Under the pieces are notes generated by a model. It was given only the letters and a program-made list of their open reading frames with translations, made no database searches and was not told the DNA's origin. Made by a program: the position numbers and the translations under genes. A stretch of DNA of 64,000 nucleotides from a virus. Its lineage: Duplodnaviria; Heunggongvirae; Uroviricota; Caudoviricetes. Positions 1,558 to 59,169 of the stretch are shown one piece after another (the stretch's first letter is position 1; every line of letters starts with the position of its first letter). The DNA lies in IMG/VR virus record IMGVR_UViG_3300003310_000099, positions 266,295 to 330,294 of that record; one strand, written 5' to 3'.

Positions 1558-4500
1558 ACGCAACTCCTGAGTTTTGGACACCGCAAGAGCTTACAGACAA
1601 AGAACTTAACGACATTTGTTCATGGCTTATGGCCTGGCAACGTGCATGTGTCAGTAGTGATTGTTTGGCTAGTGACTTCACTGAGGATGGGCAACTTTTG
1701 CCGAGTCAGAAACTTGACCCTAATTTCAAGACTGCAATGAATCATGTGCAGTCTTTAATACGGCACATCAGGGCTAAAAAGCTTAGCTGTACCGAGTAAA
1801 CAAAGGAGCCAAAAAATGACTGATGAAATTTTCCTGGTTTACGAAAATGCGGATTCTACCGAAGGTAGAGGTCCAATGATTATTGTCTCTGATTCTGGGT
1901 TCTTTCTTAGTGAGAAAGAAGCCTGGGATTTTGCCGATACTGTTCCTGGTATTATGGGGCAAAAACCGCCAAGCGGTAGCTGGCGTAAAGAACAGTATCC
2001 TGATGTTGAAGTGCGGAAATTCCTCCGACATAATTGCGACAAAGCCAAACAAAAAGTCAGTTTGCAGAAGCAGATTGCAGACCTACAACGCCAACTGAAA
2101 GCGATTTCCTAATATGTTAAGAAATGACGGCAAATACGAAATCTTCATCCTTGAAGCCAAAAAGGATAATGATTGGTTTCGTATTAGTTTTGATGGTGGA
2201 TTTAAGTACGGCAAGCGTTGGTACGCAGACGGCAGTGGTAAGGAATATGAACCTTACGAGAGTTTTAGTGCCAGTGGTAAGTGTTGGCAAGAGACTGGAG
2301 TACATGGCACTTACGATGTAGAACAGGCAATTAAACTTTACTTTATCCTCATGGAAAACAATCCTGATTATATGTTCAGGGTGGTTAAGAAGACTATTTG
2401 GCAGGATAGTGAAGTTTTATGGTGTGGCAAGAAATTTCACGGAACAGCGTGTCGAGCGACAGATGGGTAAAGGAATATAAGTGAAAACCGCATTTGCAAT
2501 TGTTCGTATTGACCATTTCCTTGGCGATGTGCCATTGGCAAATAAAATTACCGTGAAGGAAATCTTATTTGATTGGGCTAAGGCTGAGGAAGAAGTGCGA
2601 AGACTAAACCAATTAAATCATGACAAGGGCTGCGAGTATTTTGCTCAGCATACAAGACTTGAATCCGCAGCTTTACAAAACGAGAAATCGTAGTAGAATA
2701 GGAGGAGCGATGAAACTTTTCTTGTACGATGAGAAGCATCAGCAAGTACACAGTCATCTTGACCTTGGGCCGCTTAGCGAGCGGGAAATTGAGTTGCTGG
2801 ATCAAGTCACTGTATGGCTTGAGCGTGAAGGTATCTTCAACAGGTATCATAGCATAACTGTTGCAGAATCCTACAAGCAAACCTATGAAGATGGTGAATC
2901 CCAAATCGAATTTGAGGGGTAAACATGCCACAGTTAGTTGCAGACCTGGATAATCTACAAATTCAGTGGAGTTATTCAGAACGCAAGCGGGTAGCCGACC
3001 TACTTGTTTGGAATCCTGAAATGACAGAGATTATTAAAACTGTCAGGATTCCAAACAAGGTGGCGGAAATCTTGGCTGAACACGGCATGAACTCTGGAAG
3101 TTAGGGGAGAATTAAATGGCTGCTAAGAAGGATTTGTACGCAAAGGGCGAGTCTTACAAGTATCCGAGTTATTTCGGTTCCCATGCCAGCATGGTTGACG
3201 AAGAACTCACGGCTGCTCTGCAAAAGGTAATTGCAGGTGAGACTCCCGACCTGAAAGAAGATCAGCTTGCCGTTATTAACAAGTTGATTAAGCAACCAGC
3301 AGATGACCTTGTTGTTCTCCGTGACGAACACAAGGAACCTTATTCCACAAGCCGCAAGGTTTTGGATAATGGCATGGCAGACCCGAATCGCTATGCTCAA
3401 AACCGTGTGGAATATCTCTGCGCAGGCTCAGTCAAGAAGGAACAATGAAAACTCAGCCTCAATTGTTTGGTAATGACCCGCCAAACAAACTTGTTGGAAC
3501 AATAGCACCACAACCGCCTAAACCTCCCCAAACTCGACGGGAGGTAAAGGTGGGTTGTGGTTGCTTGAAATTAATTGTTATTACCGTAATAGCATTCCTA
3601 ATTTGGTATATGCTTAAAGGGTAATAACAATTAATTCATTTATACAAATATAAGAACCGTGGTAATAAGGGACACCCTTCCCTATAACCGCGCCTATACG
3701 CGAGGCAATAATGCACGGAATTATTTGTTATTGGCGTTATGTGAAGACAAAGAACAATTACGATAAGCAATGGGTGTTGGCAGAATCATTTGCCATTGAT
3801 CTTGATGGTCGTCCGCTCACAATTCCCTCAACTGGTGGTGGTGATCGTGTTGAATGGGATAAGTGGATGAATAAAAAGGTATATGCTAATAAGGAAGCAA
3901 AAGCAGAAGACGATTACGATTGGGAACCAATCATGGGTCGTGCTGTCACAATTTGCACCCTGGAGTCTGGTGTGAGGCTACTTGACATTCATCCGCCTGA
4001 ATGGTCGGATTGGCTATCTATTTCTTTTTATGAAGAATTGTGTAAGTCCGACAAATGGGTTAAGATGCTGGAACGTGGTTTTGATATGTATTTAGGCACT
4101 GCCAAAGAAGCTCGTAAGTATTGGATCAGCAAATGAAAAGATCGCTTCAAAACGGTAAATGGTTTGAATTAAAGTCTGAGGAAGAACATAAGCAATTGAA
4201 GGCTTATGGGTCTATTACGCCAAAAGACTATGGTTTTGCCAATGTTCAAATTGGTAAATATAATGGTCCTGGCAAATACATGCTCTTGCAATATAACCAG
4301 CGTTGTCCGCGTAACTGTTGTTATGATGATGTGAACGAATTATTGACAGTAGCAGATGTTGCTAAAGAAGCTAAGCAAGAAATGCTTAACTATGCCAAGA
4401 TTGCTCATGAAGCACAACCTATGAAGGTTTGTTTAATTCAAAAAGTAATTGAACATGATTGGGAACCTAATTTAGATTATAAAGTCCCATTTGCCGTCAG

Positions 4501-4877
4501 TCTGGATTCTGACCAAGCAGACCGTATTGTTGAGCAGTTGGACTATCGCTATTCTCATGTAGAGATTGACTTGCTGTTGGATTAGCTTAGCTGTACCGAG
4601 TAAGCCATGAATTGGACAAAAGAACTACCTACTGATGCAGGCTGGTACTGGAACCGCAAGAACAAGTACAAGAAGGAAAACATCTACTACGTCTGGATTT
4701 CTCTTGAAGAATCCTTGTTTAAGGACGTAAACGTATTACACTGTCGTCGTTCTGGTGAGTCACTTTTTGACAAAGAGCGTGTAGAATCTATCGGTGGCGA
4801 GTGGTACGGTCCAATCAAGGCACCCGAATAGCTTAGCTGTACCGAGTCAACTGTTCCTTTCAACAATCGGGGGTCAA

Positions 4878-5969
4878 ATGAAAACTCGCAGCAAGACGGT
4901 TGAATTGGTTAAGGAAGGTCATTTCGACAAAACTACGTTGAGTGGGCAGCTAGAGCGGATCATCAAAAAGGGCATTAGTCCCACGTTGCATAAGCAAGGG
5001 TGGACGTTCGTTCCGCCTGAGTTTATTGACAACATGAATATGACTATTGCCAAGATTCGTCTTTTGAAGAAGATGAAGCGTGAGCGTGAAGGCTCTGATG
5101 AAGTCTTTGCGCGTCAATCCGAAGAAGTTTTGCAGCGAATGGCAGTATTCTGTCGTGAATCCAACTGGTCCTTTAAGGACGCAGCAATTGAGAATAAGGT
5201 TTGTCCGAAACAGAATTTTGATTTCCCAATGCCCGAAGAAATCAAGCCTTATTTCGGGCACATTTATGATCGTGATGCGCATATTCGCCTGATTTATAGC
5301 TCTTTGAAGGCTGCTCAGGCGAGCGTGTTTGAACAACGCAATCATTGCCTCTTGTGGGGCAAGCCTGGATGTGGTAAAACCGAAACTGTTTTGAGTTTCG
5401 AGAAGATGGTAGGTGCCCAAAATGTAATCAAATTGGACGCTACTTCCACTACCAAGGCAGGTGCAGAGAATCTATTGCTGGAGTTGGACGTAGTACCGCC
5501 AATTCTTCTGATTGAAGAGTTGGAGAAGTGCAACCCATTGAATTTGCCGTGGTTGCTGGGCATCCTAGACCAACGTGGCGAGATTATTAAGACTAATGCA
5601 CGCATCGGCAGTCAGCGGAAGTCTGCTAAGTGTCTTTGCATTGCAACGGTTAATAATCTCCATGAATTGACGAATATGATGAGCGGTGCCTTGGCGTCCC
5701 GTTTCCAACATAAGATTTATTTTCCACGTCCCAATCGGGCGATTTTGGAAAAGATTCTTTTGCGGGAAATTGTCAAGGTGAAGGGCAATGAAGCGTGGAT
5801 CAAGCCGATTCTGGATTATGTTCTGGAAATCGAAAAGGTGAATGATCCACGTCGGGCTATCTCTTTGCTGGATGGCCGCGAGAAGTGGCTGACGAACGAG
5901 TACAAGGACGATTTGATGGCGGTGCGTGAAGCAATGCACACTGACAATGTAGAGTTGCCAGATAACTAA
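4878..5969 (+). CDS. AAA+ ATPase
   Basis: Walker A GKPGCGKT, Walker B LLIEE, sensor ATVN, arginine finger ALASRF; start reassigned to ATG 4878 after GGGGG. Confidence 0.85.
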   Translation: MKTRSKTVELVKEGHFDKTTLSGQLERIIKKGISPTLHKQGWTFVPPEFIDNMNMTIAKIRLLKKMKREREGSDEVFARQSEEVLQRMAVFCRESNWSFKDAAIENKVCPKQNFDFPMPEEIKPYFGHIYDRDAHIRLIYSSLKAAQASVFEQRNHCLLWGKPGCGKTETVLSFEKMVGAQNVIKLDATSTTKAGAENLLLELDVVPPILLIEELEKCNPLNLPWLLGILDQRGEIIKTNARIGSQRKSAKCLCIATVNNLHELTNMMSGALASRFQHKIYFPRPNRAILEKILLREIVKVKGNEAWIKPILDYVLEIEKVNDPRRAISLLDGREKWLTNEYKDDLMAVREAMHTDNVELPDN

Positions 5970-5980
5970 GGAGAAAATTT

Positions 5981-37627: not shown

Positions 37628-37635
37628 GGGATGAG

Positions 37636-44850: not shown

Positions 44851-44982
44851 GTCCCTGTAGTGTAATGGTAGCACGGGTTTAACCGTTTTCTAATGGTGGC
44901 TATAGACGCCATGTAGAACGGCATAGTGCGCACTATGTTGCGAGGTGAAAACCAAGTGTGGCGTCGAAACCCACCAGGGGCA
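44851..44982 (+). tRNA. tRNA-like gene with a structured insertion of about 61 nt in the anticodon loop
   Basis: GTCCCTG/CAGGGGC-A acceptor; TAGTGTAATGGTAGCAC D arm; GGTTT/AAACC stem enclosing 68 nt; degenerate T arm GTGGC-GTCGAAA-CCCAC. Confidence 0.6.
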
Positions 44983-45637: not shown

Positions 45638-46081
45638 ATGTATCAGCAGTATCCGAGGGACTTGGTTGTTAGCACGCCGTTGGGTTCGGTCAAGGTGGCT
45701 ATCACTGATGATAAGCACGCCTACGTTGAAAGCAATGACGTGCTTATCATCAGTGGCAAGCCGATTCGGGTTACGCTGCACATTTTCCTACGGGATGGGC
45801 AGTGGACCGACAAGAACGAGAACGGGCGCAGCACGATCTACGCCAAAAAGCCCGACGTGTGGACCAATGATGAGGCAACGCCACTCCAAAAGGAAAAGGC
45901 AATCAAGGCAGTGGTGCCGACTGTGGGCAACTTCATCAATGCCAATGCCCATTTGCTGAAACAGGCACAAGCGGCACACGTTGCTAACGCTGTGGAAACG
46001 CTGGAAGGCCGCATTGCCGACAAGCGTAAGGAAATCGAAGAAATGGAAAAGGAAATCGCTGACCTGAAGGCGACTCTGTAA
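45638..46081 (+). CDS. Hypothetical protein with C-terminal coiled coil
   Basis: Single-gene unit between motifs 45593 and 46085; GGAG RBS. Confidence 0.8.
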   Translation: MYQQYPRDLVVSTPLGSVKVAITDDKHAYVESNDVLIISGKPIRVTLHIFLRDGQWTDKNENGRSTIYAKKPDVWTNDEATPLQKEKAIKAVVPTVGNFINANAHLLKQAQAAHVANAVETLEGRIADKRKEIEEMEKEIADLKATL

Positions 46082-46688
46082 TAGCTTAGCTGTACTGAGT
46101 ACAGTGTAACCTTACTACGGAGAACGAAAATGCAGGTCATCGACACTCCCGAAGGAATTCGTGCCTATCGTCTGTTGGCTTTGCGGGCCGCTTTGGGACT
46201 GGAAGTCAAGGGGCTGAAAGGGCGAGTGAACGCCTACGCCACAATCAAAAAGGAATTCGGCCTCAAGGGAACCAAGGCAAAGGTCTATGCCTTGTATGAG
46301 GCCAAGTTGCAGGAAATGGGGATTCTTAGCTGAGCGGAGGGCAGAAATCCTCCCAAGACGGGGAACCATAGGGTAAGAGCGGTGCTGGCTTAGGCCAAGA
46401 ACCTCTATGGTTCCCCGTAATTAGCTTAGCTGTACCAAGTAAAGCATAACCCTGGAGAAACCATGTTGGAAAGCTGGATTCTGGCTCGTTACGATCTGAA
46501 TTACGAGATTGCTGTTGATGAGGGTCATCAGGAAGAGGCAAGCCGCATTGCTTGGGAGTGGACTGAGAAAGAGTACACTCGGATGTTTCATCGGGTCAAG
46601 GGCCAGAAACAGGCGCAGCAGCAGGAAGAAATCGCCCTCCGCGATTAGCTTAGCTGTACCAAGTTCATTGTAACCTACCTTTTGGAGA

Positions 46689-47003
46689 ATGGTCATGGAT
46701 ACGCTGGAACTTGCTTCGGCCCCCGTTGGTGAAGAGTGCGCTCAACTCGGTAGTCCCGACTATTACGAGCGGGCAAAGAAGGAATGCAACGCTTTCATTG
46801 GCCAACTTCGCCGTAAGTTCGGCAAAGAGCCAGTCGGCGCAAGGCTTTACGTCAAGGCCAACGCACATGACTTCGGGAGCTATTACGAAGTGGCGTGCAA
46901 ATTTGACGGAAGCAATCAAGAGGCAATCGAGTACGCTTTCGATCTTGAGGCCAATCTGCCCGAAAATTGGGACAAACAGGCCAAGAGCGAACTTGGGTTG
47001 TAG
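46689..47003 (+). CDS. Hypothetical phage protein
   Basis: Single-gene unit with GGAG RBS. Confidence 0.75.
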   Translation: MVMDTLELASAPVGEECAQLGSPDYYERAKKECNAFIGQLRRKFGKEPVGARLYVKANAHDFGSYYEVACKFDGSNQEAIEYAFDLEANLPENWDKQAKSELGL

Positions 47004-47600
47004 GGTTCAGGGTTCGCCCACCCTGCTTAACCTTAGCTGTACTGAGTTGGTTAAATCCCAAGGCTCGGAGTGTCTGGCGATGATTAACACGGCGGAAGAA
47101 ATGATTCGGGTAGTTCTCGATGAAATCGGCCTTCAAAGCAGCTTAGCTGAGATTCGGAACCGAGTGGTCCAATCTCTGAACGAAATTAGAAAGAAATCGG
47201 CAACGGAAAGGATATTGCGTGAAATGGCTAAAGTTTGGGAGAGTTTTGCAAGAGGAGAACAGACATATGAGGCATGTCTGAAAAAAATCGAGCTATGGGC
47301 TGCGTTTATTTGGCAGGCCAATGACGACTCTGGGTATCTGTATGAGGGTTGCACATTAAACCCCGACCACATTTGGCATGAGTGGTGTGCCTGGATTTAT
47401 GTCGCAAATCCAGAAGGGTATAGTGTTGGTTATCCGAGTCTGGCATATTGTTGCCAGATCAGGAAGAAGGTGCAGAGGGAACGTGGCGAGGAATACGACT
47501 GCCGTACCTATGAAGGTCAACCCGACCGCAATATGATTCTGGTCTGACCAACAGGGTTCGCCCACCCTGCTTTACAAACCTTAGCTGTACCGAGTACATC

Positions 47601-48695
47601 ATGAACACTCAAGAATATCTGCGTAACGGCAAGACGTTGGAAGACTTGACCTCTGAGTTTCACATCAACGTCACGAAGCACGATACGTTGCCGTTGGTCA
47701 TCCTGAACTACGATCAGATTGAGTCGCCTAAGACTCATCCGATTGTGCGGGAATGCCGTGGTTTGGTTCTCAACTCTGAGGACTATTCGCTGGTGGCGCG
47801 GGCTTTCGGACGGTTTTTCAATTGGGGTGAAGTGGCGGATGAGATGCCGTTGTTCGATTGGGATTCGTGCGTAGCTCACGAAAAGGTTGACGGTTCGCTG
47901 GTTCTCATCTACTACTTCGATGGACGTTGGCACGCGAATACGCGAGGCTCGTTCGCTGGTTGGCCGCTGTTCAACGATGAATATGTGGCGAAGTATTACG
48001 GTTTGCCGACGACGTTCAAGTGGTCCGATGGTTTCCTCAAGGCTTTAGGTGTCAATTCCCTTGAAGAGTTGAACCTTGACAAGTCGTTGACGTATGTATG
48101 CGAGTTTTGTTCGCTCTGGAACAAGGTAGTTCGGACGTACAATGAACCGTGTATGTATATGTTGACGCGGTTTGCGGGCATGGAGGAAATCGGGCCGACG
48201 TATCATCCGAACTTCAAGACGCTGGGGGCTTATCCGTTGAAGTCTGTACAGGATGTGCAGTCGTTTGTGATGGATCATCCCGAAGCGACTTTCGAGGGTG
48301 TAGTCGTCAAGGATGATGCGCACCGACGTTGGAAGTTGAAGAATCCGCGATACGTTGCGTTGCACCACATGAAGGGGAACGGTACGGAAATCTTCAAGCC
48401 TAAGAACTTGATGCCGTACATCCTCAAGAATGAGGGCGACGAATTGCTGACGTACTTCCCCGAAGTCAAGGATGTGTTTGCGGAGTACAAGGGCAAGGTT
48501 GACGATGCCTACAACGTCCTAGAAACGCTCTGGAAGGCGAATAAGGATATTCCCGTCCAAAAGGATTTTGCGTTGTCTATCGTGGGCAAGACGCCGTTTA
48601 CTTCAGTTCTGTTCAATCTCCGCAAGCAAGGGGGAACGTTGCGGGATGAATGGATGAAGCACGGGGATGGCATTCTGAAAGTGTTGTTCAAGTAG
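47601..48695 (+). CDS. RNA ligase, T4 Rnl1-like
   Basis: RECRGLVL, RFFNWGE, motif I EKVDGS, FEGVVV, RWKLK; leaderless ATG 21 nt after motif 47580. Confidence 0.88.
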   Translation: MNTQEYLRNGKTLEDLTSEFHINVTKHDTLPLVILNYDQIESPKTHPIVRECRGLVLNSEDYSLVARAFGRFFNWGEVADEMPLFDWDSCVAHEKVDGSLVLIYYFDGRWHANTRGSFAGWPLFNDEYVAKYYGLPTTFKWSDGFLKALGVNSLEELNLDKSLTYVCEFCSLWNKVVRTYNEPCMYMLTRFAGMEEIGPTYHPNFKTLGAYPLKSVQDVQSFVMDHPEATFEGVVVKDDAHRRWKLKNPRYVALHHMKGNGTEIFKPKNLMPYILKNEGDELLTYFPEVKDVFAEYKGKVDDAYNVLETLWKANKDIPVQKDFALSIVGKTPFTSVLFNLRKQGGTLRDEWMKHGDGILKVLFK

Positions 48696-51600
48696 TATCG
48701 AGGGCAGGGGAAAGCCAACCCTGCCCATTACCTTAGCTGTACCAAGGTGAATATGAAAACCAAAACAGTTTACGTCTGCGTCAAAGTCAAGGTGGAAATA
48801 CCCGACGTGCTTCCCGAAGACGTGGAGGATGCAGTCAACCTTGTAGTCAATGAACTTGACTACACCATGTCTTACGATCAGGATGGCATCAAGATCGTGG
48901 GCACGGAAATCATGGGCACGGTTGAGGCGGATTCAATTATCTAAGTCAGGGTATCGCCCACCCTGCTTAACCTTAGCTGTACCAAGTCCAATGCAACCAA
49001 ACTCATTGGAGTCAAGTATGTTTAACTTGATCGCAATCGCTGCCAGGTCACTTGGCCACCCGACCACTGGTGACTTCGCTTTCGCTCTATGGGAAATGTG
49101 CAGCGGCAACCGCCTGGACGTTCGGGACGCCAAGGCGTTGTATGAGGCGTGCGGTTATCTTCCTTTCAACGGGTATCCACTAACAAGGGCAACAAATGGG
49201 TTGGCAACGGAAACAGAACGACAAGCGTAAGCTGAACGGGCAAAAGGATTGGACGCGAGAACAAAAGGAACAGGTCAAGCGGTTTCTCAAACAGTATCCG
49301 CAAGGAGCGCAAGATGAACGACAGCAACGAAAAGCTGGATGATCTTTGGATTGACATTGGCGGCGAAGGCTAAATCTTAGCTGTACCAAGTAGAATGTAA
49401 CTCAAGTGAACCTTAATGAAAGGAAGCTATATTGCGTATAGTTTAGCCCAGAAGTAGCTCATTAGTTGGAAGTGGGACTAATGAGTGTGGGGCCTTACCA
49501 CTACTAGCTTTCTCTTACCTGGAGCAACCATGTTGAAGATTTACACTCAGGACCACGGTTACAGTGGCATGATTGTTGCAGTCGCCAAGAATGAGGCGGA
49601 TGCAAGGAAGATCATGAAAGCTGCCGCCAACTACTATGAACATACGCCAGTTGAGGAACATGAAATCAAGGAAGGTTTCATGGAATACAATATGGGTGAC
49701 GGCTAAACCTTAGCTGTACCTAGTTAATTGTAACCTAACTGGAGCCAACACATGGCGAAGCTGACGAATGCGGAACGGGAACAGTGGATCAACAACGATG
49801 AGGGTCTGTATGACTGGAAACGGTCGTCAAGGCTCTCAATGCGGGAGTTCATCAAGCAGAACAAGGAAGAGATTGACCAGTGCATCAACAACGTGCTGGG
49901 CAACAAACAGCCTGCCCATTACCTCAAGTATGGGCGCTACCCTACATGGCGGTAGCATCAATCCCAACGCTTGGAGTTCATCCCGTGGAAAACGAATTCG
50001 ATCTTTACATCATCATGGCACACGCTGAACATTTGCGGCGTCAGTTGCTGAACAACGAAAAGCCCGATGCGTGGCGTATCAAGCGGCTGAGTGAATTGGC
50101 TCAAAACATCGAACGCGAGTACGATGAGCAATACCAAAAGTGGTGCGATGAGCAAGAGCTTAGCTGTACCGAGTGAGTTGTGATAACTCAAGCGGAGAGT
50201 ACCATGAAGCTGGACCCGACTGGTTGCATCGACACGAACAACGGCAAGGGTTACTTTCAGGTCCGCGACAATTGGGAAGGCAACGGCTATCGCCTCTACT
50301 TCGGGGGCGATAGGTATGTCTCTCAGGTGGACGGTGAAATCAATGGCAAGGTTTACCGTACCATTAAGGCGGCAAAAGCTGATTGCTTCCGTCGCTTCAA
50401 GCTAGAAGCGAAGCGTGTCTATGACTGATGCCTTCAAGTCTATAGATAAACTCTGTAGACTTTATGGCACTAACTTCTACATTCAAGTTTCCGAGTGTTC
50501 CATTGGCATCTACAACGTGCCAGATGATGACTTCCATATCTTCACTTGGAGCGAAAATCGCTATGTTCTGACCAACATACAAGACTATATCCCCAATTGG
50601 CTATCCAACAAAGTGGGGATATAGCCTAGCTGTACCAAGTCCATTGTAATTCAAATCACTTTGGAGAATGGTCATGACTGACAGCGTTGCCAAGATTGCC
50701 CGTGTCAACCCGACCTTGGCCAACAAGATCAACGCACAATTCACCTTCCTCACCAATGAGGACATTGCCGAAGTCGAGAAAATCGACCGCATGATGATGG
50801 TGCTGGTGCGTTGCGGCAATGGCCGATTCGTCTGCCCCGTTCAGAACGCACTACACTTCTGCAACATCATCGACAAGGAAGGCACCGACTACGTTCGGGA
50901 TATGAGCTTCCCAAGTAATGGGTAGAACAGGGTTCGCCCACCCTGCTTAAACCTTAGCTGTACTGAGTGTAATGTAACTCATTCAGGAGGACTTCAATGG
51001 CTCAGTGCTGCGGCGAAGAAATGTACAAGGACTGCAACGGCCAACCGCGTTGTGAACAGTGCCAACCGCCGTGTCCGTGTTGCTATGATGGCGGCATGGA
51101 TGACCAAGAGGAAGAAGAAGAATTTTGGCTGACGTGTCTGGATGAGATGGATGCACGATACCGTAAAGGAACGAAAAATGGAAACTCCGCTCCAGAAGCT
51201 GCCATTCGATGAAGCCCTGTACCAGACATTCAATTTCGTTAGCAAAATGTCTGAGTCAATGGATGCTACGTTTACTGATGATGAACGGGCAGCTGTCAAG
51301 ATCACTTCACGCATACTCGCCCAAATGGTTGTGGAAATGCACGACGATACCTTAGCTGTACCTAGTAAGTTGTAACCCAACCCCAAACGGAGAGTGCCAT
51401 GTACGAAGTCATCCACAAGGGTCGCAGCTTGTTCCGCAACGTCAGCATCGAGCGTTGCCGTCAGTTCATCGCACGGCACAATCTCAGTGGGGCTATCATT
51501 CAGCCCCTCAGTCAAATGTTGGCTGCTTAACTCCAGGGTTCGCCCCCCCTGCGCCACATCTATTAAGGAGCCAAACATGTATGAGGGTGAAGCCGATTAC

Positions 51601-52260
51601 GTTCCCTACTTCTGGGAACGCAAGACACCAGTGCAGACCGTTGGCAAGGTGCGTATCTACCTTGTCCAAGACGAAGCTGCACAATTCGATGATCTGATGG
51701 GACGAAGCCAACTCAACTTGGCCGAATGTTCCAACGGCAAGGTCATGGAAATAGCTTAGCTGTACCTAGTTAATTGTAACCTTACTCTGGAGCAAACACA
51801 TGCAGGTACATCTTTACGGCAAGCCTCTGGTTGAGGGGAAGACTGTGACGCTGGACCATACGGTTCAGAAGTTCGAGATTCTGATTCGCTCCATGAGTGG
51901 GGTTCATGCACAACGCTTGAAAGACCTCATTCAGAAGCAGTTTGAGGTCGTCAAGATCAAGGAAGTGGACAGCATTTCTTACGTCATCTAAGGGGCAGGG
52001 TCGCCCACCCTGCTTAAACCTTACGGAGTCCTACCATGAAGATCATTGCTGCCTACAACAAGTACACCAAGGAAGCCTTGACCAACGAACAGCGGGAAGC
52101 TGACATGGAGGCACTACTTGAGGCACATGAAGAAGAAGTGAAAACCAACCCCACATGGAAGTATTTCGGGGGGCATCATCGAGCTAGGCGACCACGAATA
52201 CCAAGTGTGCTAAACCTTAGCTGTACTGAGTACAGTGTAACCCCAACACTTGGAGCAAAC

Positions 52261-52626
52261 ATGGACAAGCATTTGCAAGAGCGTATCGACCGTTTCGTGC
52301 AGGCCGCTGATCGGTGCGTGGAAACCTACTGGACGAACAGTGGCTACACCCACATGTCACCGCCCAAACATCGCGCCAACGAGATTAGCGACAAATGGGT
52401 GCGAGTTGTGACGGTCGAAGAACGCAATGGCGTTTGGCAGGATTCGAGCGTCTACGCCTTCATCTGCCTCAAGGACTATTCGACCAAGGCTTTAGGTCAA
52501 CTCAAGAAGGGCGACATTCACAAACCAGCGACCTACAAGGCCGCTGCGAAGCACGCAAGGGGCAACGTGTTCGACAACGATTTTGAGAAGTGCCTGACGC
52601 CGTGGGGTATCGTCTACTTGAAGTAA
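52261..52626 (+). CDS. Hypothetical phage protein
   Basis: KGDIHKPATYKAAAKHARGNVF; GGAG RBS after motif 52216. Confidence 0.75.
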   Translation: MDKHLQERIDRFVQAADRCVETYWTNSGYTHMSPPKHRANEISDKWVRVVTVEERNGVWQDSSVYAFICLKDYSTKALGQLKKGDIHKPATYKAAAKHARGNVFDNDFEKCLTPWGIVYLK

Positions 52627-53960
52627 GGGGCAGGGTCGCCCACCCTGCTTAAACCTTAGCTGTACCGAGTAGAGTATGAACAAACAAGAATACGCTGAGT
52701 ATGAGGCACGGGTAGCCGAGTTCTTCAGCCACGGTTTGGCTAACTTGTCAACCAAGTCGGATTGCCATGAACCGTTCTTTTCGTGGCGTCCGTGTCAGTG
52801 CTGCGGGACACACTTAGGCGGCAATCGCTATGAGTGTGACGGGTACAATGAGAAGACAAAGGAAGTCGAAGAGTACGACAACATTTGCGAAGACTGCGTA
52901 TATTACGCAGAATACGGGCAGCTTGACGATACCACTATGGCCAATCTGGAGTAACCATGAAACTCAGCGAAGCTATCCACAAGCTGCAATATACGCTCAA
53001 TCTCCACGGCGATAAGGAAATGAAACAGTGGAAGTATAGCGACGGCAAGGTACAGTCTGTGCCCGTCAAGCTGGAAGTAGCCGAAAACCCCGAAGATGAT
53101 ACCATCGGCGTCATCCTCAGTGCCGAATAACCTTAGCTGTACCGAGTAAAGCATGAACACATCACTTGAAAAGAAGATCAATCATAAGCGGCGTTTGCGT
53201 GTGCTGCGTGAGAGACTTCGCAAGCTGCTGCTCCAATACTACGTTCATTCGGACGCGGGCAAGCTGGAGAAGCATGTTCGTGTGATGAACAAGCTCCGCA
53301 AGGCAATCAGAAAGCTTAGCTGTACCAAGTAGGTTGTAATCACCCTTACTGGAGTCAGCCATGCAAGACCACGTTCTCGACAACTGCCTCATTCATCAGA
53401 AAGATGCCATTATCGACCTCATCGACAGTGGCAAGCACGATGAGGCGATAACGCTGCTCAAGTTCGTCAAGGAACTGTGGGAAGCCGCGAGCTACGACTA
53501 CAAGTACAGAGAACTCAAGGAGCGCGGCGTCAGAGCGGCGGATAACCGAGAGAACTGCCGCCACTGGAAGCACGTCCAGTCACTCACGGCCATTCAGAAC
53601 AAGTATCGTTCACTGTAAGGGGTGGATAGGGGAGAAAGCCAATCCCCTTATCCTGCTGATACCTTAGCTGTACCTAGTGCAGTATAACCCTTACTGGAGA
53701 AGACACATGAAGGTTTGCCAGAAGTGCGGGGATGAGATTGGCACCAAGGACGGGGACAACTATTGTGGCAAGTGCCACAAGAAGAAGGATGCGGCCAAGA
53801 GACGGAAGGAACGGGAAGACGTGTTGCGTAGTTGTGGGTTGGTGAAGGTGCGTGGGGCAATGGGTGGAACCTATTGGGAATAACCCAATAGGTCGCCCAA
53901 CCCAGCATAGCTTAGCTGTACCAAGTGCATTGTGACAGTCAAACCCCTGGAGTCAGTGCA

Positions 53961-54317
53961 ATGCGGTATTTCATCAAGTTGGCCAAGAAGAACGACCGTG
54001 GCGAACCCGTCAACACGGGTTGGTATGAAGAGGTGGATGAGTACACGTTCAAGAACGCCAAGTATGCGCTCAACGATTGCGGCGATGGTCCGCGTTACAC
54101 GAACGACGCTGTGATGGTGGACGGCGATGAGGTCACTGCACGGTTGGTCGCAGCCCCAATACGGGACTTGGCCATTCTGACGCGATACTTTCAGGCGTCG
54201 GAACCGAACAAGGTGGAAGGCGGTTTCGTCCGCGAGCAACCGAGTATCAAGTTCAACATTCGCGGCAAGATCAAGCTGCGTGAGAAGGACGGTAGCATCT
54301 GGAGCAAAGCAGCGTAA
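53961..54317 (+). CDS. Hypothetical protein
   Basis: Single-gene unit with GGAG RBS, followed by the TCGCCC hairpin. Confidence 0.7.
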   Translation: MRYFIKLAKKNDRGEPVNTGWYEEVDEYTFKNAKYALNDCGDGPRYTNDAVMVDGDEVTARLVAAPIRDLAILTRYFQASEPNKVEGGFVREQPSIKFNIRGKIKLREKDGSIWSKAA

Positions 54318-54970
54318 ACCAACAGGGTCGCCCACCCTGCTTTACCTTAGCTGTACGGAGTGGAGTATGAGCTACCTTCGTCACATGCGGACTACTGCTG
54401 AATGCCGCGCTGAAAGCGGGGCCGAAGAACAAGGCGTCAAGGTGCGTGCGAAGCGTAATCGCCGCAATATCCCCAACGCTTGGGACGACGTGCCTCATGC
54501 CCGTCGCCACAAGTGCGACCGCCACAAGGATCATCGTCGCTAACGGGCGGGTGTACGGTCTGGCGGCGGGGGCCGTCAGCGTAAGGTAGGCAAACCTACA
54601 CCGTACACCTGCCCAAAAGTACAAAGCTTAGCTGTACCTAGTATAGTGTAATCACCCTTACTGGAGACAGCCATGCACGCTACCACCGAACGCAAGAAGT
54701 CCAACAAGAACGATTTCACCGTCACCACGACGGTCAAGGATCGCGCCATTCACATCCAGACCATCATTATGATGGCAGCAAGGTCCAACCGCGAACCCGA
54801 TAAGCGCCGCAAGCTGCGGGAACGCGACGACCGCCGCATGAGGGACTGATGAGCGAACAAGAAATTGCCGACTGGCTCGCAGAACTACGCGAGTCAGTCG
54901 GCACCAGACCCCAAGGATAGCTTAGCTGTACCAAGTAGGTTGTAACCAACACCCTTACTGGAGAGTACAC

Positions 54971-55354
54971 ATGACCGCTACCGTGTCCCTCAGCTGCGAA
55001 CGCTACTTCCCCGAAACCAACAAGCGGGGCAAGAATGGCAAGCTGCAACGCATTTGCATCGACGTGCGCAAGATGCAGATTCGCGGCGACTTCATCACCA
55101 CGACGGGCTTTGAGGTCAACTACCTCAAGCGGGGCGGCGAATTCCGCTTCTACGTCAAGAGCATCGTCAAGCCTGTCAAGTCGATATGGCAGGAATTGAA
55201 CACCCGTCCGCAACCCATTATCCCGAAGTGGGAGCGGGAAGGCAACTACAGTCGGGATGAATTCGTGGCGTGGCTCAAGGCACGCCGTATCCAAAACGCC
55301 GAAAGCCTTGTCATCGCTCTGATGACGATGCCCCCCGAAAACTTGGCAGCGTAG
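54971..55354 (+). CDS. Hypothetical protein
   Basis: Single-gene unit with CTTACTGGAG leader. Confidence 0.75.
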   Translation: MTATVSLSCERYFPETNKRGKNGKLQRICIDVRKMQIRGDFITTTGFEVNYLKRGGEFRFYVKSIVKPVKSIWQELNTRPQPIIPKWEREGNYSRDEFVAWLKARRIQNAESLVIALMTMPPENLAA

Positions 55355-55580
55355 CCAACAGGGTCGCCCACCCTGCATAGCCCATAGCTTAGCTGTACCA
55401 AGTAGAGTGTAACCAACACTCAGGAGTCAGCACATGCGGGCCAAACATCGTAACGACCACAATCATGGCAAGAGCGGTTGGGTCGGTGGCAATCCACGTT
55501 ATGGCCGTAAACGTGGCTTCCGCAAGTCCGATCAACCCAAAGACAAAGCCGCCTGGAAACGCGAAGTCAAGTAAGGGGTG

Positions 55581-55610
55581 AGACAGGGGACTGCCAACCC
55601 TGTCTTTTTT
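55581..55610 (+). terminator. Intrinsic terminator
   Basis: AGACAGGG/CCCTGTCT stem followed by a T-tract. Confidence 0.8.
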
Positions 55611-55615
55611 CGTTT

Positions 55616-55856
55616 CAACCTAAACTCAGTACAGCTAAGCTTTTACACCTCCATACTGTACAAAGTGCTTCACCTCTCAAATGCGATTAAATGCGTTTTA
55701 AGCCACTCTGAGGTCAAGGTGACTCTCGACCCACTTAACCCATTTGAATCGCTTCTAGGGCCATCCTAGCGTCAGCAAATGGCATCCGCGAATCCAATCC
55801 CGAATGTTCAAAGACCGCACCGAATCCTACCCTAATTAAGCTTAGCTGTACCGAGT
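55616..55856. repeat. Non-coding element of about 240 bp, copy 1, bounded by outward-facing 16-bp motifs
   Basis: Inverted motif 55624-55639, direct motif 55841-55856; colinear with 57945-58186. Confidence 0.92.
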
Positions 55857-56179
55857 ATATTGTTCTAAACCACCCCATACTGGAGAACACGAACATGCGT
55901 TGCGAAGATGCCCCGTGCTGCGGTTGCTGCCCGTCCTACTACGATCACGACGCCTACGATGACATGGAGCAGTACGACGACCGCGACGACGCACGGTACG
56001 ACGACGTTGAGGAAGACCACATCCTTGAGCAGCAGGAGCTTGAGGACTTCGAGCAGGCCGACGAATACTTCGGCCACTACAACGATTGGGAGTAGGGGGA
56101 AGGGGTCGCCCACCCCTTTATAATAAGTTTACCTTAGCTGTACCTAGTCCAGTGTAACGCTTCTTACTGGAGTGCAGCA

Positions 56180-56665
56180 ATGCTGACCGTCACCGAACTC
56201 CGCGACAATCTGATGGCCCTGAAGGGCGCAGCGATCATCACGATTGAGGCCGAGACGGAGCCTCAGATGCGCAAGACGGATAACCCCTACGTTGGCACCG
56301 TCAAGGTGTCAAGCGTCAACGGCGTCATCAACTGGATTTACGAGATTGCCGTCAACAACCAACGGCTGCGGGAAGACAAGGAAGCAGACTTCGTTGCCTT
56401 CCCCCGTAAGTGGGGCAAACGCATCAAGGGCACCCCACTGGTGGAACACAAAGGCAAGTTCTACCTTGAAATGAAGGTGCAGAGCGCCAAAGCCAAGTAC
56501 GTTCACGGCGATGCCGAGATTGCCGTAAGTGAGCTAATCCCCTACTTCTACGAACGGGGCAAGTCTCGTCAAGGCGTCGATAAGGAAGTCATCCTACGGG
56601 ACTACGCTCTTGAGAACATCAAGGGCATTCGCTGGGGTGGCGAACTCATCAAGGTAGGGGCATGA
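56180..56665 (+). CDS. Hypothetical phage protein
   Basis: Single-gene unit with CTTACTGGAG leader. Confidence 0.8.
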   Translation: MLTVTELRDNLMALKGAAIITIEAETEPQMRKTDNPYVGTVKVSSVNGVINWIYEIAVNNQRLREDKEADFVAFPRKWGKRIKGTPLVEHKGKFYLEMKVQSAKAKYVHGDAEIAVSELIPYFYERGKSRQGVDKEVILRDYALENIKGIRWGGELIKVGA

Positions 56666-56980
56666 TGCCCTAATTAGGATAGCTTAGCTGTACCTAGTAC
56701 AGTGTTCCTCAACCCCTGGAGACGCACATGACTCTACACTGCATCCTCTGCGGCGAAGAAGCGGCCTTGACGCTGAATCTGCAAGATGGGGAAACCGTGT
56801 CTTGTCCCGAATGCGGGAACGACTTCACGACCGCCGACGTGAAGGAACGCATCGAAGAGTGGACGCAGGCGTTAGCCTGGATCAACAACATGCCCAAGTA
56901 ATGGGCATGGTCGCCCTAATTAGGATAGCTTAGCTGTACCTAGTAGAGTGTAATCACCACCACCTTACTGGAGAGTACAC

Positions 56981-57346
56981 ATGGGCGTCCGTCTCTACCC
57001 GAACACGACCAACGCGGCGAAGCTGGAGAAGTTGGCTGGTGTCCCCGAAGGGACGCACAAGCGGATGGAAGACATGGCAAAGCGGCACGCGGAGGAACGC
57101 GCTGCGGCCACCAACTGGAACGAGTACGAAGACGGCTACCGCCAATGGAAGGAACGGGACAACGACGGTCCTATTGGCGACTTGGACGCCTTCCTTACCT
57201 TCGGGTGGGGCAAGTTCCGCCCAATCGACGGCATCGGGGAGGATTACGCGGGCAACGAGAGCGACCCACAACGGGCCGCGAAGCTGCTCCGATACAACGG
57301 TATCGGGGTGGACGTGAGCCTAACGGAAGGCGTCCACTGGTGCTAG
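56981..57346 (+). CDS. Hypothetical protein
   Basis: Single-gene unit with CTTACTGGAG leader; terminator at 57352-57377. Confidence 0.75.
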   Translation: MGVRLYPNTTNAAKLEKLAGVPEGTHKRMEDMAKRHAEERAAATNWNEYEDGYRQWKERDNDGPIGDLDAFLTFGWGKFRPIDGIGEDYAGNESDPQRAAKLLRYNGIGVDVSLTEGVHWC

Positions 57347-57915
57347 TGGACAGGGGGCGAAAGCCCCCTTTTCTTTTATACAACCATTACCTTAGCTGTA
57401 CCTAGTGGAGTGTCCCCCCTTCACTACTGGAGCCGCACGATGACGCTGAAACAGCAGCTGGAAAAGTTCGATGCGCAGGCCGACACCTACGCCAAGGCCA
57501 CGAAGGAGCCTTGGGAGTGCGAGAGCTACGCTGAATGGGTGGCTTCGCTGCCCGAAGAAGAACAACCTTATGAAAATGAGTAACACGGGCATCGCCCGCC
57601 CTAATTAGGATAGCTTAGCTGTACCTAGTAAGTTGTTCCAACCAACCCCATACGGAGACACGCACATGGCCACCGTCATCGCTTCCAACCTCACCGCCGT
57701 TGTCGTCTACCGCGTCGAGAAGACGCTGGGGCCGAATGGCCGCGTCAAGCAGCTGACCGACGTGACGATCAAGGCGGGGCCGCTCACGGTCGCCACCAAG
57801 ACGCTCTGGGGCCGCTACAGTCAGAGCAAGGCTCTGGTGGAGTTCAAGCGGAACCCCAAGGGCTGGACGGTGCTGGATGCCGCCGCGTCCAAGTTGCCGA
57901 TTGCGGCCTAACGAG

Positions 57916-57940
57916 AAGGGGGCTTCGGCCCCCTTTTTTT
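57916..57940 (+). terminator. Intrinsic terminator
   Basis: GGGGGC-TTCG-GCCCCC followed by T7. Confidence 0.85.
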
Positions 57941-57944
57941 ATTC

Positions 57945-58186
57945 CAACCTAAACTCGGTACAGCTAAGTTTTATGTAAAGATTACTGTACATAAGTGCTT
58001 CATGGCTAGAATGCGATTAAATGCGTTTTAAGCCACTCTAAGGTCAAGGTGACTCTCGACCCATTTGAGCAATCTAAACGCCTTCTAGGGCCATCCTAGT
58101 GTCAGCAAATGGCATTCGCAAAGGCAAACCCAAGAGGCAAACCGACTGGCCCAATCCTACCCTAATTAAGCTTAGCTGTACCTAGT
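57945..58186. repeat. Non-coding element of about 240 bp, copy 2, bounded by outward-facing 16-bp motifs
   Basis: Inverted motif 57953-57968, direct motif 58171-58186. Confidence 0.92.
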
Positions 58187-58224
58187 AAGTTGTAAGATTC
58201 ACCCCCCTTACTGGAGAGACGGCC

Positions 58225-58548
58225 ATGCACACCAAGGAAAGCATTGCGGCGCTGTTGGCCACGAACGACAAGGCCGTGTATCGCGCTCTGGTGGTGCTGT
58301 TCGAGCGGCAGACCGCCGACGAACGCGACTCGGAGCAGACGAATCACCTCAACGGGATGGGCTTCAACGGGCGGGACGCCAAGTTCGGCACCTCGTTGGC
58401 CAAACAGGTCATCCGTTGGCAGGACGGGTTGACCAACTACCGAACGCCGTTGACGATGGCGCAGACGAGCGCCGCACGCAAGATGCTCCGCAAGTACGCG
58501 GGACAGTTGGCCAAAGTCGCCAACGAGAAGGCCGCAGTCGGGGTCTAA
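58225..58548 (+). CDS. Hypothetical phage protein
   Basis: Single-gene unit; terminator at 58553-58574. Confidence 0.8.
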   Translation: MHTKESIAALLATNDKAVYRALVVLFERQTADERDSEQTNHLNGMGFNGRDAKFGTSLAKQVIRWQDGLTNYRTPLTMAQTSAARKMLRKYAGQLAKVANEKAAVGV

Positions 58549-58837
58549 GGGGAAGGGGGCTTCGGCCCCTTTTTCCTTTTATAAGGATTAGCTTAGCTGT
58601 ACCTAGTACAGTGTAACGACGACTGGTCTTCATCATATAGTGGCCCTTCCCTCACCCTGTTCTGGAGTCGGCAATGAAGTACGTCTATGGTGACTTGGTG
58701 CTGAGTGCGGTGCATGGCTGCTACGTCCGTGTCAAGGAACAACAGGGCTGCTACTTGGTTGTCATGGATCGCAATACGCTGGTCGAGTTGCCCGACCACA
58801 TCCACATATCGCAAGCCACGTTCGCCAAGTAGCATGA

Positions 58838-58876
58838 GATTAGCACTAAGCTATTAGGTATAGCTTAGTGCTAATC
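58838..58876. repeat. Perfect 17-bp-arm inverted repeat containing TAGCTTAG half-motifs
   Basis: GATTAGCACTAAGCTAT-taggt-ATAGCTTAGTGCTAATC. Confidence 0.9.
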
Positions 58877-59169
58877 ATATTGAATAGCTTAGCTGTACCA
58901 AGTAAGGTGTAACATAATTAAGAATGGAGAAATTAATTTCAAAAAAGTTTGAAAAAAAGAAAATAAAAAGGAGGGGGCTACCCGCCATACGAGCCTTCTT
59001 ATACATGAAGACAAGAAAAAATTCCACAGGTAGGTTTTCAAATTTCAAATTATAGAAAAAAATTCCCAATTTCGTGTTTCAAAAATTGGGAATTTCAAAA
59101 TTTTCATTTTCCGTTATTAGCTCAAAACTTTACCAAAATCCGATTTCCAAAAATAGCATTGCTGGATTT

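Follow-up and report, generated by a model that had tools for sequence, protein, structure and literature searches.

Promoters of the single-subunit phage RNA polymerases (T7, T3, SP6) are about 20 bp long, information-rich and phage-specific. Mycobacteriophages carry stoperators, which are repressor sites without a fixed distance to starts, as well as start-associated sequences, which always lie 3–8 bp before a start codon. Leaderless middle and late transcripts were reportedly described by Sevostyanova in 2007 for the Thermus phage phiYS40.

The holoenzyme containing gp36 of phage phiEco32 recognizes a single element, tAATGTAtA, without a −35 element, and starts transcription 6–8 bp downstream (PMC8948821, PMC12276001). 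PeSLs, the promoter-early stem-loop cassettes, are found in the T4-type phages RB49, phi1 and KVP40/nt-1 (PMC2839356, PMC4122927), and −10-adjacent leaderless genes occur in Deinococcus-Thermus (PMC12340547).

Here we analyze a 64,000-nt stretch of a Caudoviricetes genome (positions 266,295 to 330,294 of IMG/VR record IMGVR_UViG_3300003310_000099; hereafter the window), in which a first-pass annotation had described a 57-kb array of promoter-gene cassettes separated by copies of one 16-bp motif. This 16-mer, CTTAGCTGTACYNAGT, probably makes up most of a single-element promoter of 20 bp specific to the 373-kb phage.

Results

The 16-mer has 73 exact matches in the window, 71 on the + strand and two on the − strand, the outermost at 1782–1797 and 58888–58903; none is expected by chance (100 dinucleotide-preserving shuffles of the window). 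Its 11-bp core, CTTAGCTGTAC, occurs 85 times (83 + and 2 −), in line with the 'about 85' of the first-pass annotation. The 83 co-oriented copies, 71 of them exact for the full 16-mer, form an array at 1782..58903 (+), and these ends match those first proposed, but the element is not confined to this region: the whole genome (373,404 bp) holds 94 exact and, near-exact copies included, 113 in total, mostly between 196 and 325 kb, with 111 on the + (gene) strand and two on the − strand.

Across the 113 copies the conserved unit is 20 bp, A-W-A-S-CTTAGCTGTAC-Y-N-A-G-T, with an information content of about 2 bits at 14 positions. The 'WAS' prefix noted earlier is real but slightly too short, as conservation extends over AWAS from position −4 (A/T in 88/25 copies at −4, A/T in 50/61 at −3, A in 111 of 113 at −2, C/G in 48/59 at −1). 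From −45 to −6 the information content is zero, so a −35-like element is absent, as had been stated. The motif is not an inverted repeat, and as RNA it has no conserved secondary structure.

Before 36 kb the window contains 27 copies at a median spacing of 1104 bp. The dense part, 36270..58903 (+), contains 56 at a median of 398 bp, so that nearly every small ORF or small RNA there owns one copy, which bears out the earlier description of 36–59 kb. GC content is 0.49–0.56 in the dense part versus 0.41–0.45 elsewhere. The cassette ORFs (n = 76) have a median length of 76 aa, and no paralogs were found when the 76 were compared among themselves. Payloads behind the element include accessory genes of early type, rIIA, tRNAs and a tmRNA; the phage also has RNA repair genes (polynucleotide-kinase-like and RNA ligase). 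Motif 41204–41219 begins 4 nt after tRNA-Leu(UAA) (41117–41200, +), and the tmRNA (38788–38927, +) is followed by motif 38932–38947, which heads an ORF-free cassette with a tRNA-like RNA.

Orientation with the genes (111 of the 113 genome copies) and position at gene junctions both proved as first described: an ORF of at least 35 codons starts no more than 110 nt downstream of 108 of the 113 copies, and the stop codon of the upstream ORF falls within the element (−4 to +18) in 34 of the 83 window copies. At motif position 22, which lies 6 nt past the motif end and 15 nt from the T of TGTAC, 105 of the 113 copies have a purine. An ATG begins at this position in 27 copies, with at most five at each neighboring offset, and the 5′ ends of tRNA-Met, tRNA-Val and tRNA-Pro fall at positions 22, 24 and 27, respectively.

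The leaderless geometry (class A) is exemplified at 47576..47603 (+), where AAAC, the motif (47580–47595) and ACATC precede the ATG at 47601 of the RNA ligase gene (47601..48695, +; Pfam RNA_lig_T4_1), a genuine conserved gene that served as the anchor for finding relatives. The orthologous RNA ligase starts in relatives L198, L199 and L200 also place the ATG exactly 15 nt past the T of TGTAC, which in L199 is reached via one extra ATG codon; in all, four lineages show this +15 ATG and three others have a leader instead. In a class B example at 54917..54973 (+), with the motif at 54921–54936 and a predicted start at GTAAC, the ATG lies at motif position 51 behind an unstructured, C/A-rich leader that contains CTGGAG. 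Counting against a start site at position 22, the GAG of the motif lies 6 nt before the ATG in class A copies (position 13 is G in 18 of 25) and could serve as a weak ribosome-binding site; the constant spacing would then not indicate where transcription starts.

The phage has three genes for sigma-like proteins: one of 159 aa, FliA/WhiG-like and with regions 2 and 4; one of 110 aa in which only region 2 is present; and one of 275 aa that resembles SigA/RpoS. Each of them has a homolog in LR756511.1. Searches for a phage RNA polymerase gave no match to PF00940 or PF00623 in six frames of the genome (the T7-type Pfam search lacked a positive control) and no DxDGD or DxDxD catalytic motif or T7-type motif B/C in long ORFs, although very divergent polymerases could escape; of the two largest unknown proteins examined, one looks like a tape-measure protein and the other like a non-polymerase. 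Of the two readers proposed in the first pass, sigma factor or RNA polymerase, these results narrow the choice to a sigma factor.

A promoter with some other reader appears unlikely, whether an unrecognized phage RNA polymerase, a virion-delivered factor, or an activator that would recruit the host polymerase to a 20-bp site in the manner of MotA/AsiA. Twenty nearly invariant bp are indeed closer to a single-subunit polymerase promoter or the site of an activator than to a sigma −10 element, and exceed what sigma regions 2/3 normally specify, so that a second protein may be involved; the early-type payloads listed above also fit, as does the fact that most large proteins of the phage match no family. 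Apart from the polymerase searches, the five weakly conserved bases between block and purine argue for a sigma-type discriminator, T7-type promoters being conserved through −1, and with an activator box centered near −30, transcription of the 27 class A copies would start within the ORF.

Both here and in L198, L199 and L200, copies come directly after intrinsic terminators, and at such sites a new promoter is needed. In the window, a GC hairpin with a T run at 57352–57379 (+) precedes motif 57391–57406, and a terminator at 58549–58585 (+) precedes motif 58592–58607. Hairpins upstream of the element are more frequent than in controls (MFE ≤ −15 for 16 of the 113 copies versus 4.9%). In one hairpin family of 12, CAGGGT(T)CGCCCACCCTG, with a member at 47552..47569 (+), nine sit 6–12 nt upstream of the motif and make up a terminator-like module at the 3′ end of the cassette. 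The two minus-strand copies both lie just past + strand terminators and form divergent pairs, 55624..55639 (−) with the + copy at 55841 and 57953..57968 (−) with that at 58171. Relatives L098 and L200 share the latter arrangement, and LR756511.1 also has a divergent pair, 628(−)/716(+). Strong TTGACA-N16/17-TGnTATAgT promoters are abundant at 16–200 kb of the genome and rare at 260–340 kb, and at 44–59.5 kb of the window sigma70-like promoters are not enriched (7 found versus 12.8 ± 4.1 expected); the element is the only conserved upstream signal in this region.

The same data bear on an RNA-level signal, at which a phage or host endoribonuclease would cut polycistronic transcripts about 5 nt downstream to yield monocistronic, often leaderless mRNAs and tRNA 5′ ends. 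Such cleavage would produce identical geometry, a point against the promoter reading: it would account just as well for the strand bias, the location at junctions, the constant spacing to the ATG and to the 5′ end of tRNA-Met, and the copies between tRNAs, and RNA repair genes are at hand. We nevertheless consider it decidedly unlikely, as little read-through RNA is expected past canonical intrinsic terminators, divergent pairs and minus-strand copies occur amid otherwise + strand genes, no enriched alternative promoters in the array would make the precursor, and the motif lacks conserved RNA structure. Very improbable, too, is an asymmetric, co-oriented operator of the stoperator type, through which a phage repressor would silence the region, for example in a lysogen or late in infection. 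Like the stoperators of L5-type mycobacteriophages, the copies are numerous and asymmetric, share one orientation and occur at gene junctions, and the IMG/VR record is labeled 'provirus'; however, for repressor binding the spacing to start codons, to the 5′ end of a tRNA or to a conserved purine need not be constant, the genes would still need promoters in an array where others are not enriched, and the element follows terminators.

Relatives, including phages of 590, 595 and 623 kb, carry lineage-specific variants around an invariant TGTAC: CTTAGTTGTACCAAWW in L199 and L200, AATTGCAATTGTACCA in L202, TTCCAGCTGTACTAAGT in L203, and tAAAGCTGTACtaAa in LR756511.1. The +15 purine is kept in at least 93% of copies in each variant lineage except LR756511.1 (purine in 56 of 79 copies, A in 50 of 79). 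At 27 junctions orthologous with L198, the element shows an identity of 0.92 and the flanks 0.48–0.50, and position 12 has switched from C to T in concert. Selection and co-variation appear to act on the element by lineage. Together, directionality, upstream terminators, fixed spacing and lineage co-variation support the dedicated phage promoter that the first-pass annotation had suggested.

Its second proposal, a role in cassette crossover, also gained support when checked against a close relative: entire units, from one motif to the next, occur in only one of the two genomes or have been replaced. Of the 22 indel or replacement breakpoints, twelve are no more than 10 nt from the element, with 2.2 expected, which argues for cassette shuffling, although such breakpoints could in part reflect a conserved island within diverged DNA and not the actual crossover point. 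The motif-to-motif unit at 41458..41679 (+), at either end of which homology stops within the motif, and the unit at 49709..50158 (+) are absent from L198; that at 47032..47579 (+) is replaced there by an unrelated 266-bp unit (6827–7092), both breakpoints being within motif copies. Hardly any weight attaches to a site that is primarily recombinational (attC-like or a crossover hotspot), at which a dedicated recombinase would shuffle cassettes with expression secondary: this would fit the exchanged units and the unrelated ORFan payloads of higher GC, but no array-linked recombinase was identified (in a search that was not systematic), the motif lacks inverted symmetry, the geometry to start codons and RNA 5′ ends is left unexplained, and ordinary homologous recombination between 20–30-bp direct repeats suffices, as for PeSLs (PMC2839356).

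Discussion

Like T7, T3 and SP6 promoters, the element is about 20 bp long and information-rich, with lineage variants around a common core; unlike these, it occurs where no T7-like polymerase gene was detected, and its conserved block stops 5 nt before the putative start, whereas theirs runs through −1/+1. With stoperators and start-associated sequences it shares a short, asymmetric motif, co-oriented at gene junctions or just before start codons, but only 27 of the 113 copies abut an ATG, the others having separate ribosome-binding sites or heading tRNAs. As in Deinococcus-Thermus and phiYS40, a −10-type element stands at a fixed short distance from the ATG, with a putative start at its A; those systems depend on a TATAAT-like motif and the primary sigma of the host, whereas the motif here is phage-specific.

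The middle and late phiEco32 promoters read by gp36 are likewise single −10-region elements without a −35 that contain TGTA, and their start 6–8 bp downstream compares with a conserved purine 6 nt downstream here; both phages encode their own sigma and have sigma70-type early promoters. The putative promoter here differs in length (20 bp, not 9), sequence and number (more than 100 copies, not 6), and heads accessory early-type genes and tRNAs instead of middle/late genes. PeSLs are similarly composite terminator/promoter modules, in about 50–100 copies concentrated in plastic regions, that lie immediately upstream of small ORFans, between a stop codon and the next ribosome-binding site, and contain the indel or replacement breakpoints between close relatives. 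PeSL promoters, however, match the host sigma70 consensus (−35, −10, AT-rich upstream region), which the phage-specific element does not; their hairpin lies within the promoter and not upstream of it, and about a quarter of units here have leaderless geometry. The motif sequence was not found in the phage literature searched. What is new is thus this sequence family, and the first-pass label of an undescribed system holds to that extent; the kind of system is already known, from phage-sigma single-element promoters and PeSL promoter/terminator cassettes (PMC8948821, PMC2839356).

On balance we favor a single-element promoter used by the host polymerase with a phage sigma, often yielding leaderless mRNAs; its activity, its start site, the sigma that reads it and its timing are what we infer in this best explanation. 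Host core RNA polymerase with one of the three phage sigmas, and not host sigma70, would bind the element as an extended −10-type site without a −35 partner, its TG-TACYNA portion placed about where a −10 hexamer would be, and transcription would start at the conserved purine at motif position 22. In about a quarter of copies this purine would be the A of the ATG, hence leaderless mRNAs, and once the first base of a tRNA; the remaining copies would give a 15–35-nt unstructured leader with a CTGGAG-type ribosome-binding site. Besides the length of the nearly invariant block, some further features count against this model: in the −10-like hexamer TACYNA the canonical final T is missing, the TG directly abuts this hexamer and is not one base away, and two of the three sigmas have region 4, yet a −35 element is absent.

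The sigma genes themselves carry no motif copy, and one is preceded by a consensus sigma70 promoter, suggestive of a cascade in which host sigma70 acts early and a phage sigma then serves the motif class. Since many units end in a terminator or the recurrent hairpin, the region may be seen as a chain of terminator-promoter-payload cassettes. Because the copies are dense, co-oriented and near-identical repeats, they may double as sites of crossover where cassettes are lost, gained and exchanged.

Extent and anatomy of the motif array

The 16-bp motif (positions numbered 1–16) is described by the pattern CTTAGCTGTACYNAGT, which has 73 matches in the window (71 on the plus strand, 2 on the minus strand) spanning positions 1782 to 58903, where dinucleotide-preserving shuffles predict 0. 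The 11-bp core occurs in 83 plus-strand and 2 minus-strand copies, so that the count of about 85 in the first-pass annotation was right. Copies are separated by a median of 1104 bp before 36 kb (n = 27) and by a median of 398 bp between 36 and 59 kb (n = 56). The source record, of which the window is positions 266,295–330,294 (373,404 bp in all, with an estimated completeness of 98%), contains 94 exact and 113 near-exact copies (111 plus-strand, 2 minus-strand), most of them within 196–325 kb.

A logo of all copies defines a 20-bp block, A/T-A/T-A-C/G-CTTAGCTGTAC-C/T-N-A-G-T, with information concentrated at positions −4 to +16 and weaker at 17–25; positions 17–21, which separate the block from a conserved purine, carry 0.2–0.7 bits. 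In the same logo the information between −45 and −6 is approximately zero and there is consequently no −35-like element, bearing out the earlier observation that none is conserved upstream. Genome-wide 9-mer enrichment with the motif masked revealed no second repeated signal, and no convincing late-promoter motif emerged from the sequences preceding putative structural genes.

Distance to start codons and RNA 5′ ends

At position 22, 6 nt past the end of the motif, 105 of the 113 copies have a purine, with T next to it on the 3′ side. An ATG begins at this position in 27 copies (class A, with a leaderless geometry), neighbouring offsets accounting for at most 5 each, and a second, broad set of starts lies at positions 33–55, preceded by a CTGGAG-type ribosome-binding site (class B). 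Copies that do not abut an ATG lie 12–90 nt upstream of a start, or head tRNAs and other RNAs: the 5′ end of a tRNA-Met (genome position 124488) falls exactly at position 22, those of a tRNA-Val and a tRNA-Pro at positions 24 and 27. Start-associated sequences always lie a few bp before the start codon, unlike the present element, only 27/113 copies of which abut an ATG. In the window, 34 of 83 copies contain the end of the preceding ORF, making the element a compact stop-signal-start junction.

Full-length homologs establish the start codon of the RNA ligase gene. Its ATG falls at position 22 in this phage and in two related metagenome contigs, L198 and L200, while a third, L199, regains the distance through an extra ATG codon; in contigs L202 and L203 and in the uncultured phage LR756511.1, the gene is instead preceded by a leader that carries a ribosome-binding site. 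A protective 5′ hairpin opening the class B leaders was not borne out, structure being weak and 12 of 45 pairing from the first base.

A 341-aa ORF at window 43175–44200 holds a copy of the motif at 43753, 6 nt beyond which lies an ATG (∼43775). This ORF is probably two genes, the ∼43775 ATG heading the P-loop kinase (AAA_33) part; the corresponding kinase in L198–L200 is ∼137 aa long.

Terminators, hairpins and sigma70-type promoters

Motif copies stand straight after predicted canonical intrinsic terminators at window positions 37689, 42814, 57391 and 58592 and at genome positions 42466 and 151816, and the same order recurs in several cases in L198, L199 and L200. Stable hairpins (MFE ≤ −15 kcal/mol), several with T runs, lie upstream of 16 of the 113 copies, compared with 4.9% of random positions, and of the 12 members of a hairpin family, CAGGGT(T)CGCCCACCCTG, 9 stand 6–12 nt before a motif copy. 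At window 51996–52020, a CAGGGTCGCCCACCCTG hairpin copy is followed by CTTAAAC-CTTACGG, which resembles a decayed motif and is a possible example of promoter loss fusing two units.

Consensus sigma70 promoters (TTGACA-N16/17-TGnTATAgT) are common at 16–200 kb of the genome, indicating that the host polymerase reads the usual consensus, and rare at 260–340 kb; between 44 and 59.5 kb of the window, sigma70-like promoters number 7, against 12.8 ± 4.1 expected. The motif itself lacks a TTGACA/TATAAT architecture. Given the scarcity of sigma70 promoters in the array, the motif is thus the sole conserved candidate for re-initiation after each terminator. Some genes are preceded by a motif copy and a sigma70 promoter in tandem (genome 196410/196439), as expected of two temporal classes. 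A very strong sigma70-type set, cTTGACA-N16/17-(TG)nTATAgTaag, found at genome 16–200 kb (for example at 27490, 39235, 42005, 155038 and 194104), probably comprises early promoters.

Both minus-strand window copies pair divergently with plus-strand copies, an arrangement kept in relatives, and LR756511.1 has a back-to-back motif pair at 628(−)/716(+). A ∼190-bp non-coding element carrying AATGCGATTAAATGCGTTTTAA and CTAGGGCCATCCTAG is present in two copies (window 55640–55840 and 57970–58170), each lying between the minus and plus members of a divergent motif pair, just after a plus-strand intrinsic terminator. It also occurs at positions 750–950 of L098, a contig from a relative ∼78% identical, and may be either a DNA site or a small RNA.

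Lineage variants of the element

Scanning metagenome contigs with the motif yielded short contigs 65–85% identical to this genome, in which the motif is kept exactly. Using the RNA ligase as an anchor, we recovered flanks from five lineages (L198, L199, L200, L202, L203). The same element recurs 32 times in L198 (93% amino acid identity), mostly with a T as base 12, and CTTAGTTGTACCAAWW is found at nearly all junctions in L199 (76%; 30 copies) and L200 (74%; a 590-kb contig with 53 copies). Other variants are AATTGCAATTGTACCA in L202 (62%; a 623-kb contig) and TTCCAGCTGTACTAAGT in L203 (64%). The closest GenBank record, the 595-kb LR756511.1 (rIIA 54% identical at the amino acid level), carries tAAAGCTGTACtaAa, with 47 plus-strand copies at 0.7–19 kb and 30 minus-strand copies elsewhere (0–1 for a control pattern).

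The pentamer TGTAC does not change across these lineages, and 15 nt past its T at least 93% of copies have a purine in every lineage but LR756511.1, where 56 of 79 copies do (A in 50 of 79). In a comparison of L198 with the window at 27 orthologous junctions, sequence identity averages 0.92 for the element and 0.48–0.50 for its flanks, position 12 having changed in concert. Such lineage variants and concerted change are the pattern expected when one evolving protein reads many sites.

In IMG/VR the exact motif gives single chance matches only, on 34 contigs; neither the 355-kb contig among these (G001) nor a distant relative of 159 kb (G002) carries the motif. L077, a contig encoding the same DUF932 protein, is 100% identical to this genome and thus provides no independent variation.

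Candidate readers of the motif

The genome encodes three sigma-70-family proteins, all with Pfam Sigma70_r2 and two also with Sigma70_r4: a 159-aa protein containing regions 2 and 4 (FliA/WhiG-like by PDB match), whose gene (genome 16864–17343) has a consensus sigma70 promoter 133 nt upstream (genome 16731); a 110-aa protein (genome 96335–96667) in which region 2 stands alone; and a 275-aa protein (genome 157512–158339) that is SigA/RpoS-like by PDB match. None of the three (0/3) has the motif upstream and all have homologs in LR756511.1; no single one could be assigned to the motif. The LR756511.1 homolog of the 275-aa protein is seemingly split into adjacent open frames of 202 and 129 aa (190499–191312).

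A six-frame search for a T7-type polymerase with PF00940, run with no positive control, produced no candidate, and one for the beta-prime domain (PF00623) was negative with all controls detected. The catalytic motifs DxDGD/DxDxD and T7 motifs B/C are absent from the long ORFs, as is Rx3Kx6-8YG from every ORF of at least 450 aa, and the largest unassigned proteins inspected resemble a tape-measure protein and a non-polymerase. Where the first-pass annotation had proposed a sigma factor or an RNA polymerase as the reader, the sigma half stands, with three genes, and the polymerase half is countered by these profile and motif searches.

The anatomy of the element fits a sigma-type site, with its hexamer TACYNA, which contains TA and lies seven bases ahead of the purine, an adjoining TG, a discriminator-like, poorly conserved gap, and no −35. 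Precedent is provided by the gp36 promoters of phage phiEco32, which consist of a single element, tAATGTAtA, with experimentally established starts 6–8 bp downstream (PMC8948821), AATGTA being centred at −11.5 (PMC12276001). Here too the element is single and lacks a −35, and sigma-70-family proteins are phage-encoded. A start at a similar distance has indirect support from the purine 6 nt downstream (105/113), the ATG there in 27 copies and the tRNA-Met 5′ end at the same place. Because no polymerase was found, sigma factors are present, the anatomy is of the sigma type and phiEco32 sets a precedent, we favour host core polymerase carrying a phage sigma factor as the likely reader, although the 20 invariant bases leave room for an extra factor beside sigma.

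A rival reading, and an unlikely one, is that an unrecognised polymerase or activator reads the motif. The most far-reaching view, in which the TGTAC elements are read by an unrecognisable apparatus (for example a new family of DNA-binding initiation factors or polymerases of huge phages) and the cassettes are also actively captured and exchanged, making an integron-like accessory-gene platform common to a clade of 370–620-kb phages, strikes us as improbable. Promoters of T7-type single-subunit polymerases are conserved continuously through −1/+1, unlike the weakly conserved positions 17–21 here, and no T7-like polymerase emerged from the PF00940 and motif searches. A MotA-type activator box was rejected since class A transcription would then start within the ORF. 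Readings of the motif as an RNA-processing signal, a stoperator-like operator (mycobacteriophage-type stoperators come with a cognate immunity repressor and a temperate life style) or a dedicated recombination site are all argued against by its placement after terminators, the absence of other promoters from the array, its divergent pairs, and its conserved spacing from start codons and from one tRNA 5′ end.

Payloads and genome setting

No close relative at the DNA level was found among 50,697 deposited phage genomes, and megablast of 44 kb of the window returned a tRNA match only; IMG/VR labels the source record ‘provirus’. Accessory functions of the type found in the rIIA neighbourhood are encoded in the window (an AAA ATPase, DUF932, a polynucleotide-kinase-like protein, RNA ligase and a glycosyltransferase), and a copy of the motif precedes rIIA itself, which lies outside the window. 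Among the 76 ORFs downstream of window motif copies, whose median length is 76 aa, no two are paralogs; what is repeated is therefore regulatory rather than coding sequence, and tandem gene duplication is out as the origin of the array. GC content rises from ∼0.43 to 0.49–0.56 in the dense array (window 36000–58000; 0.41–0.45 in the rest of the window), which, together with the small paralog-free ORFs there, suggests that the payloads are of foreign origin or under different constraints.

The genome contains 58 tRNA genes and one tmRNA (window 38788–38927; Rfam RF00023, 49.8 bits, gathering threshold 47), after which comes a motif copy at 38932. Two ORF-less cassettes may encode tRNA-like RNAs with inserts: one, at 38932–39122, has a T-arm-like GGTTCGATTCC and an acceptor-like 3′ end but no ARAGORN call, and the other, at 39566–39659, is called ‘tRNA-???’ by ARAGORN, with an odd anticodon loop. 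Outside the window, one of the 58 tRNA genes (genome 167507–167581) is called by ARAGORN as a CUA-anticodon tRNA of ‘tRNA-Pyl’ type, an amber suppressor, and a 1052-aa protein (genome 344114–347272), with its best relative in LR756511.1, is split by an intein with a LAGLIDADG endonuclease domain.

Exchange of cassettes between relatives

The motif had also been proposed as the crossover point at which cassettes are added, deleted and shuffled, a claim to be judged by comparison with a relative. When L198 and window 39.6–53.9 kb are both cut at the motif, they are for the most part colinear unit for unit. Units at 41458–41679, 46425–46648 and 49709–50158 are present only in the window, one at L198 11699–11952 is present only in L198, and the unit at window 47032–47579 is replaced by an unrelated one in L198; a ∼95-bp hairpin module is joined to different units in the two phages. 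Gaps of at least 50 bp are flanked by 22 breakpoints. On the window side, 12 of these fall no more than 10 nt from an element, where 2.2 would be expected (P < 1e-4; a count of 12 was not attained in any of 10,000 permutations), and 9 do so in both genomes. A further contig, L089, contains homologous segments in another order.

These comparisons show that exchange occurs at cassette borders, with whole units gained, lost and replaced, as had been proposed. Crossover within the motif itself would be compatible with the breakpoints but is not proven by them, because a motif under selection stays alignable amid diverged flanks and coincides with gene borders.

Discussion

Exchange at promoter/stem-loop cassettes, the PeSLs, is experimentally established in the T4-type phages RB49 and phi1 (PMC2839356), and the finding was widened to further T4-like phages (PMC4122927). 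The array described here resembles them in its associated stem-loops (predicted terminators and enriched upstream hairpins) and in having indel and replacement breakpoints at elements (12/22). In contrast, the PeSL promoter is a host sigma70 consensus with AT-rich upstream sequence, which the present motif does not match.

The motif strings do not occur in the literature searched, where matches were to unrelated primers, and we found there no description of promoters from this clade of huge phages. The earlier suggestion of an undescribed system thus applies to the motif itself, while the kind of system – single-element promoters read by a phage sigma, and promoter/terminator cassettes that are shuffled – is known already. 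Its interest lies in its extent (more than 100 units per genome, in a clade reaching 620 kb), the series of TGTAC variants, and the predicted leaderless class.

For a clade of huge phages that has not been cultivated (this 373-kb genome and relatives of 590, 595 and 623 kb, among them LR756511.1), the element opens the transcription programme to sequence analysis: in each genome, one class comprising more than 100 probable transcription units can be picked out from DNA alone. The lineage variants around TGTAC constitute a natural series of putative promoters and readers in which the question of which phage sigma reads what is testable, and such pairs could yield orthogonal expression parts. 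The fixed geometry predicts ∼27 leaderless mRNAs in a single phage, and the RNA ligase gene, by its geometry leaderless in some relatives and leadered in others, offers a clean natural experiment on how leaderless messages are translated. Finally, the comparison with a relative, in which regulatory repeats serve as seams for the exchange of ORFans, widens the PeSL idea beyond T4-type phages and sigma70 promoters.
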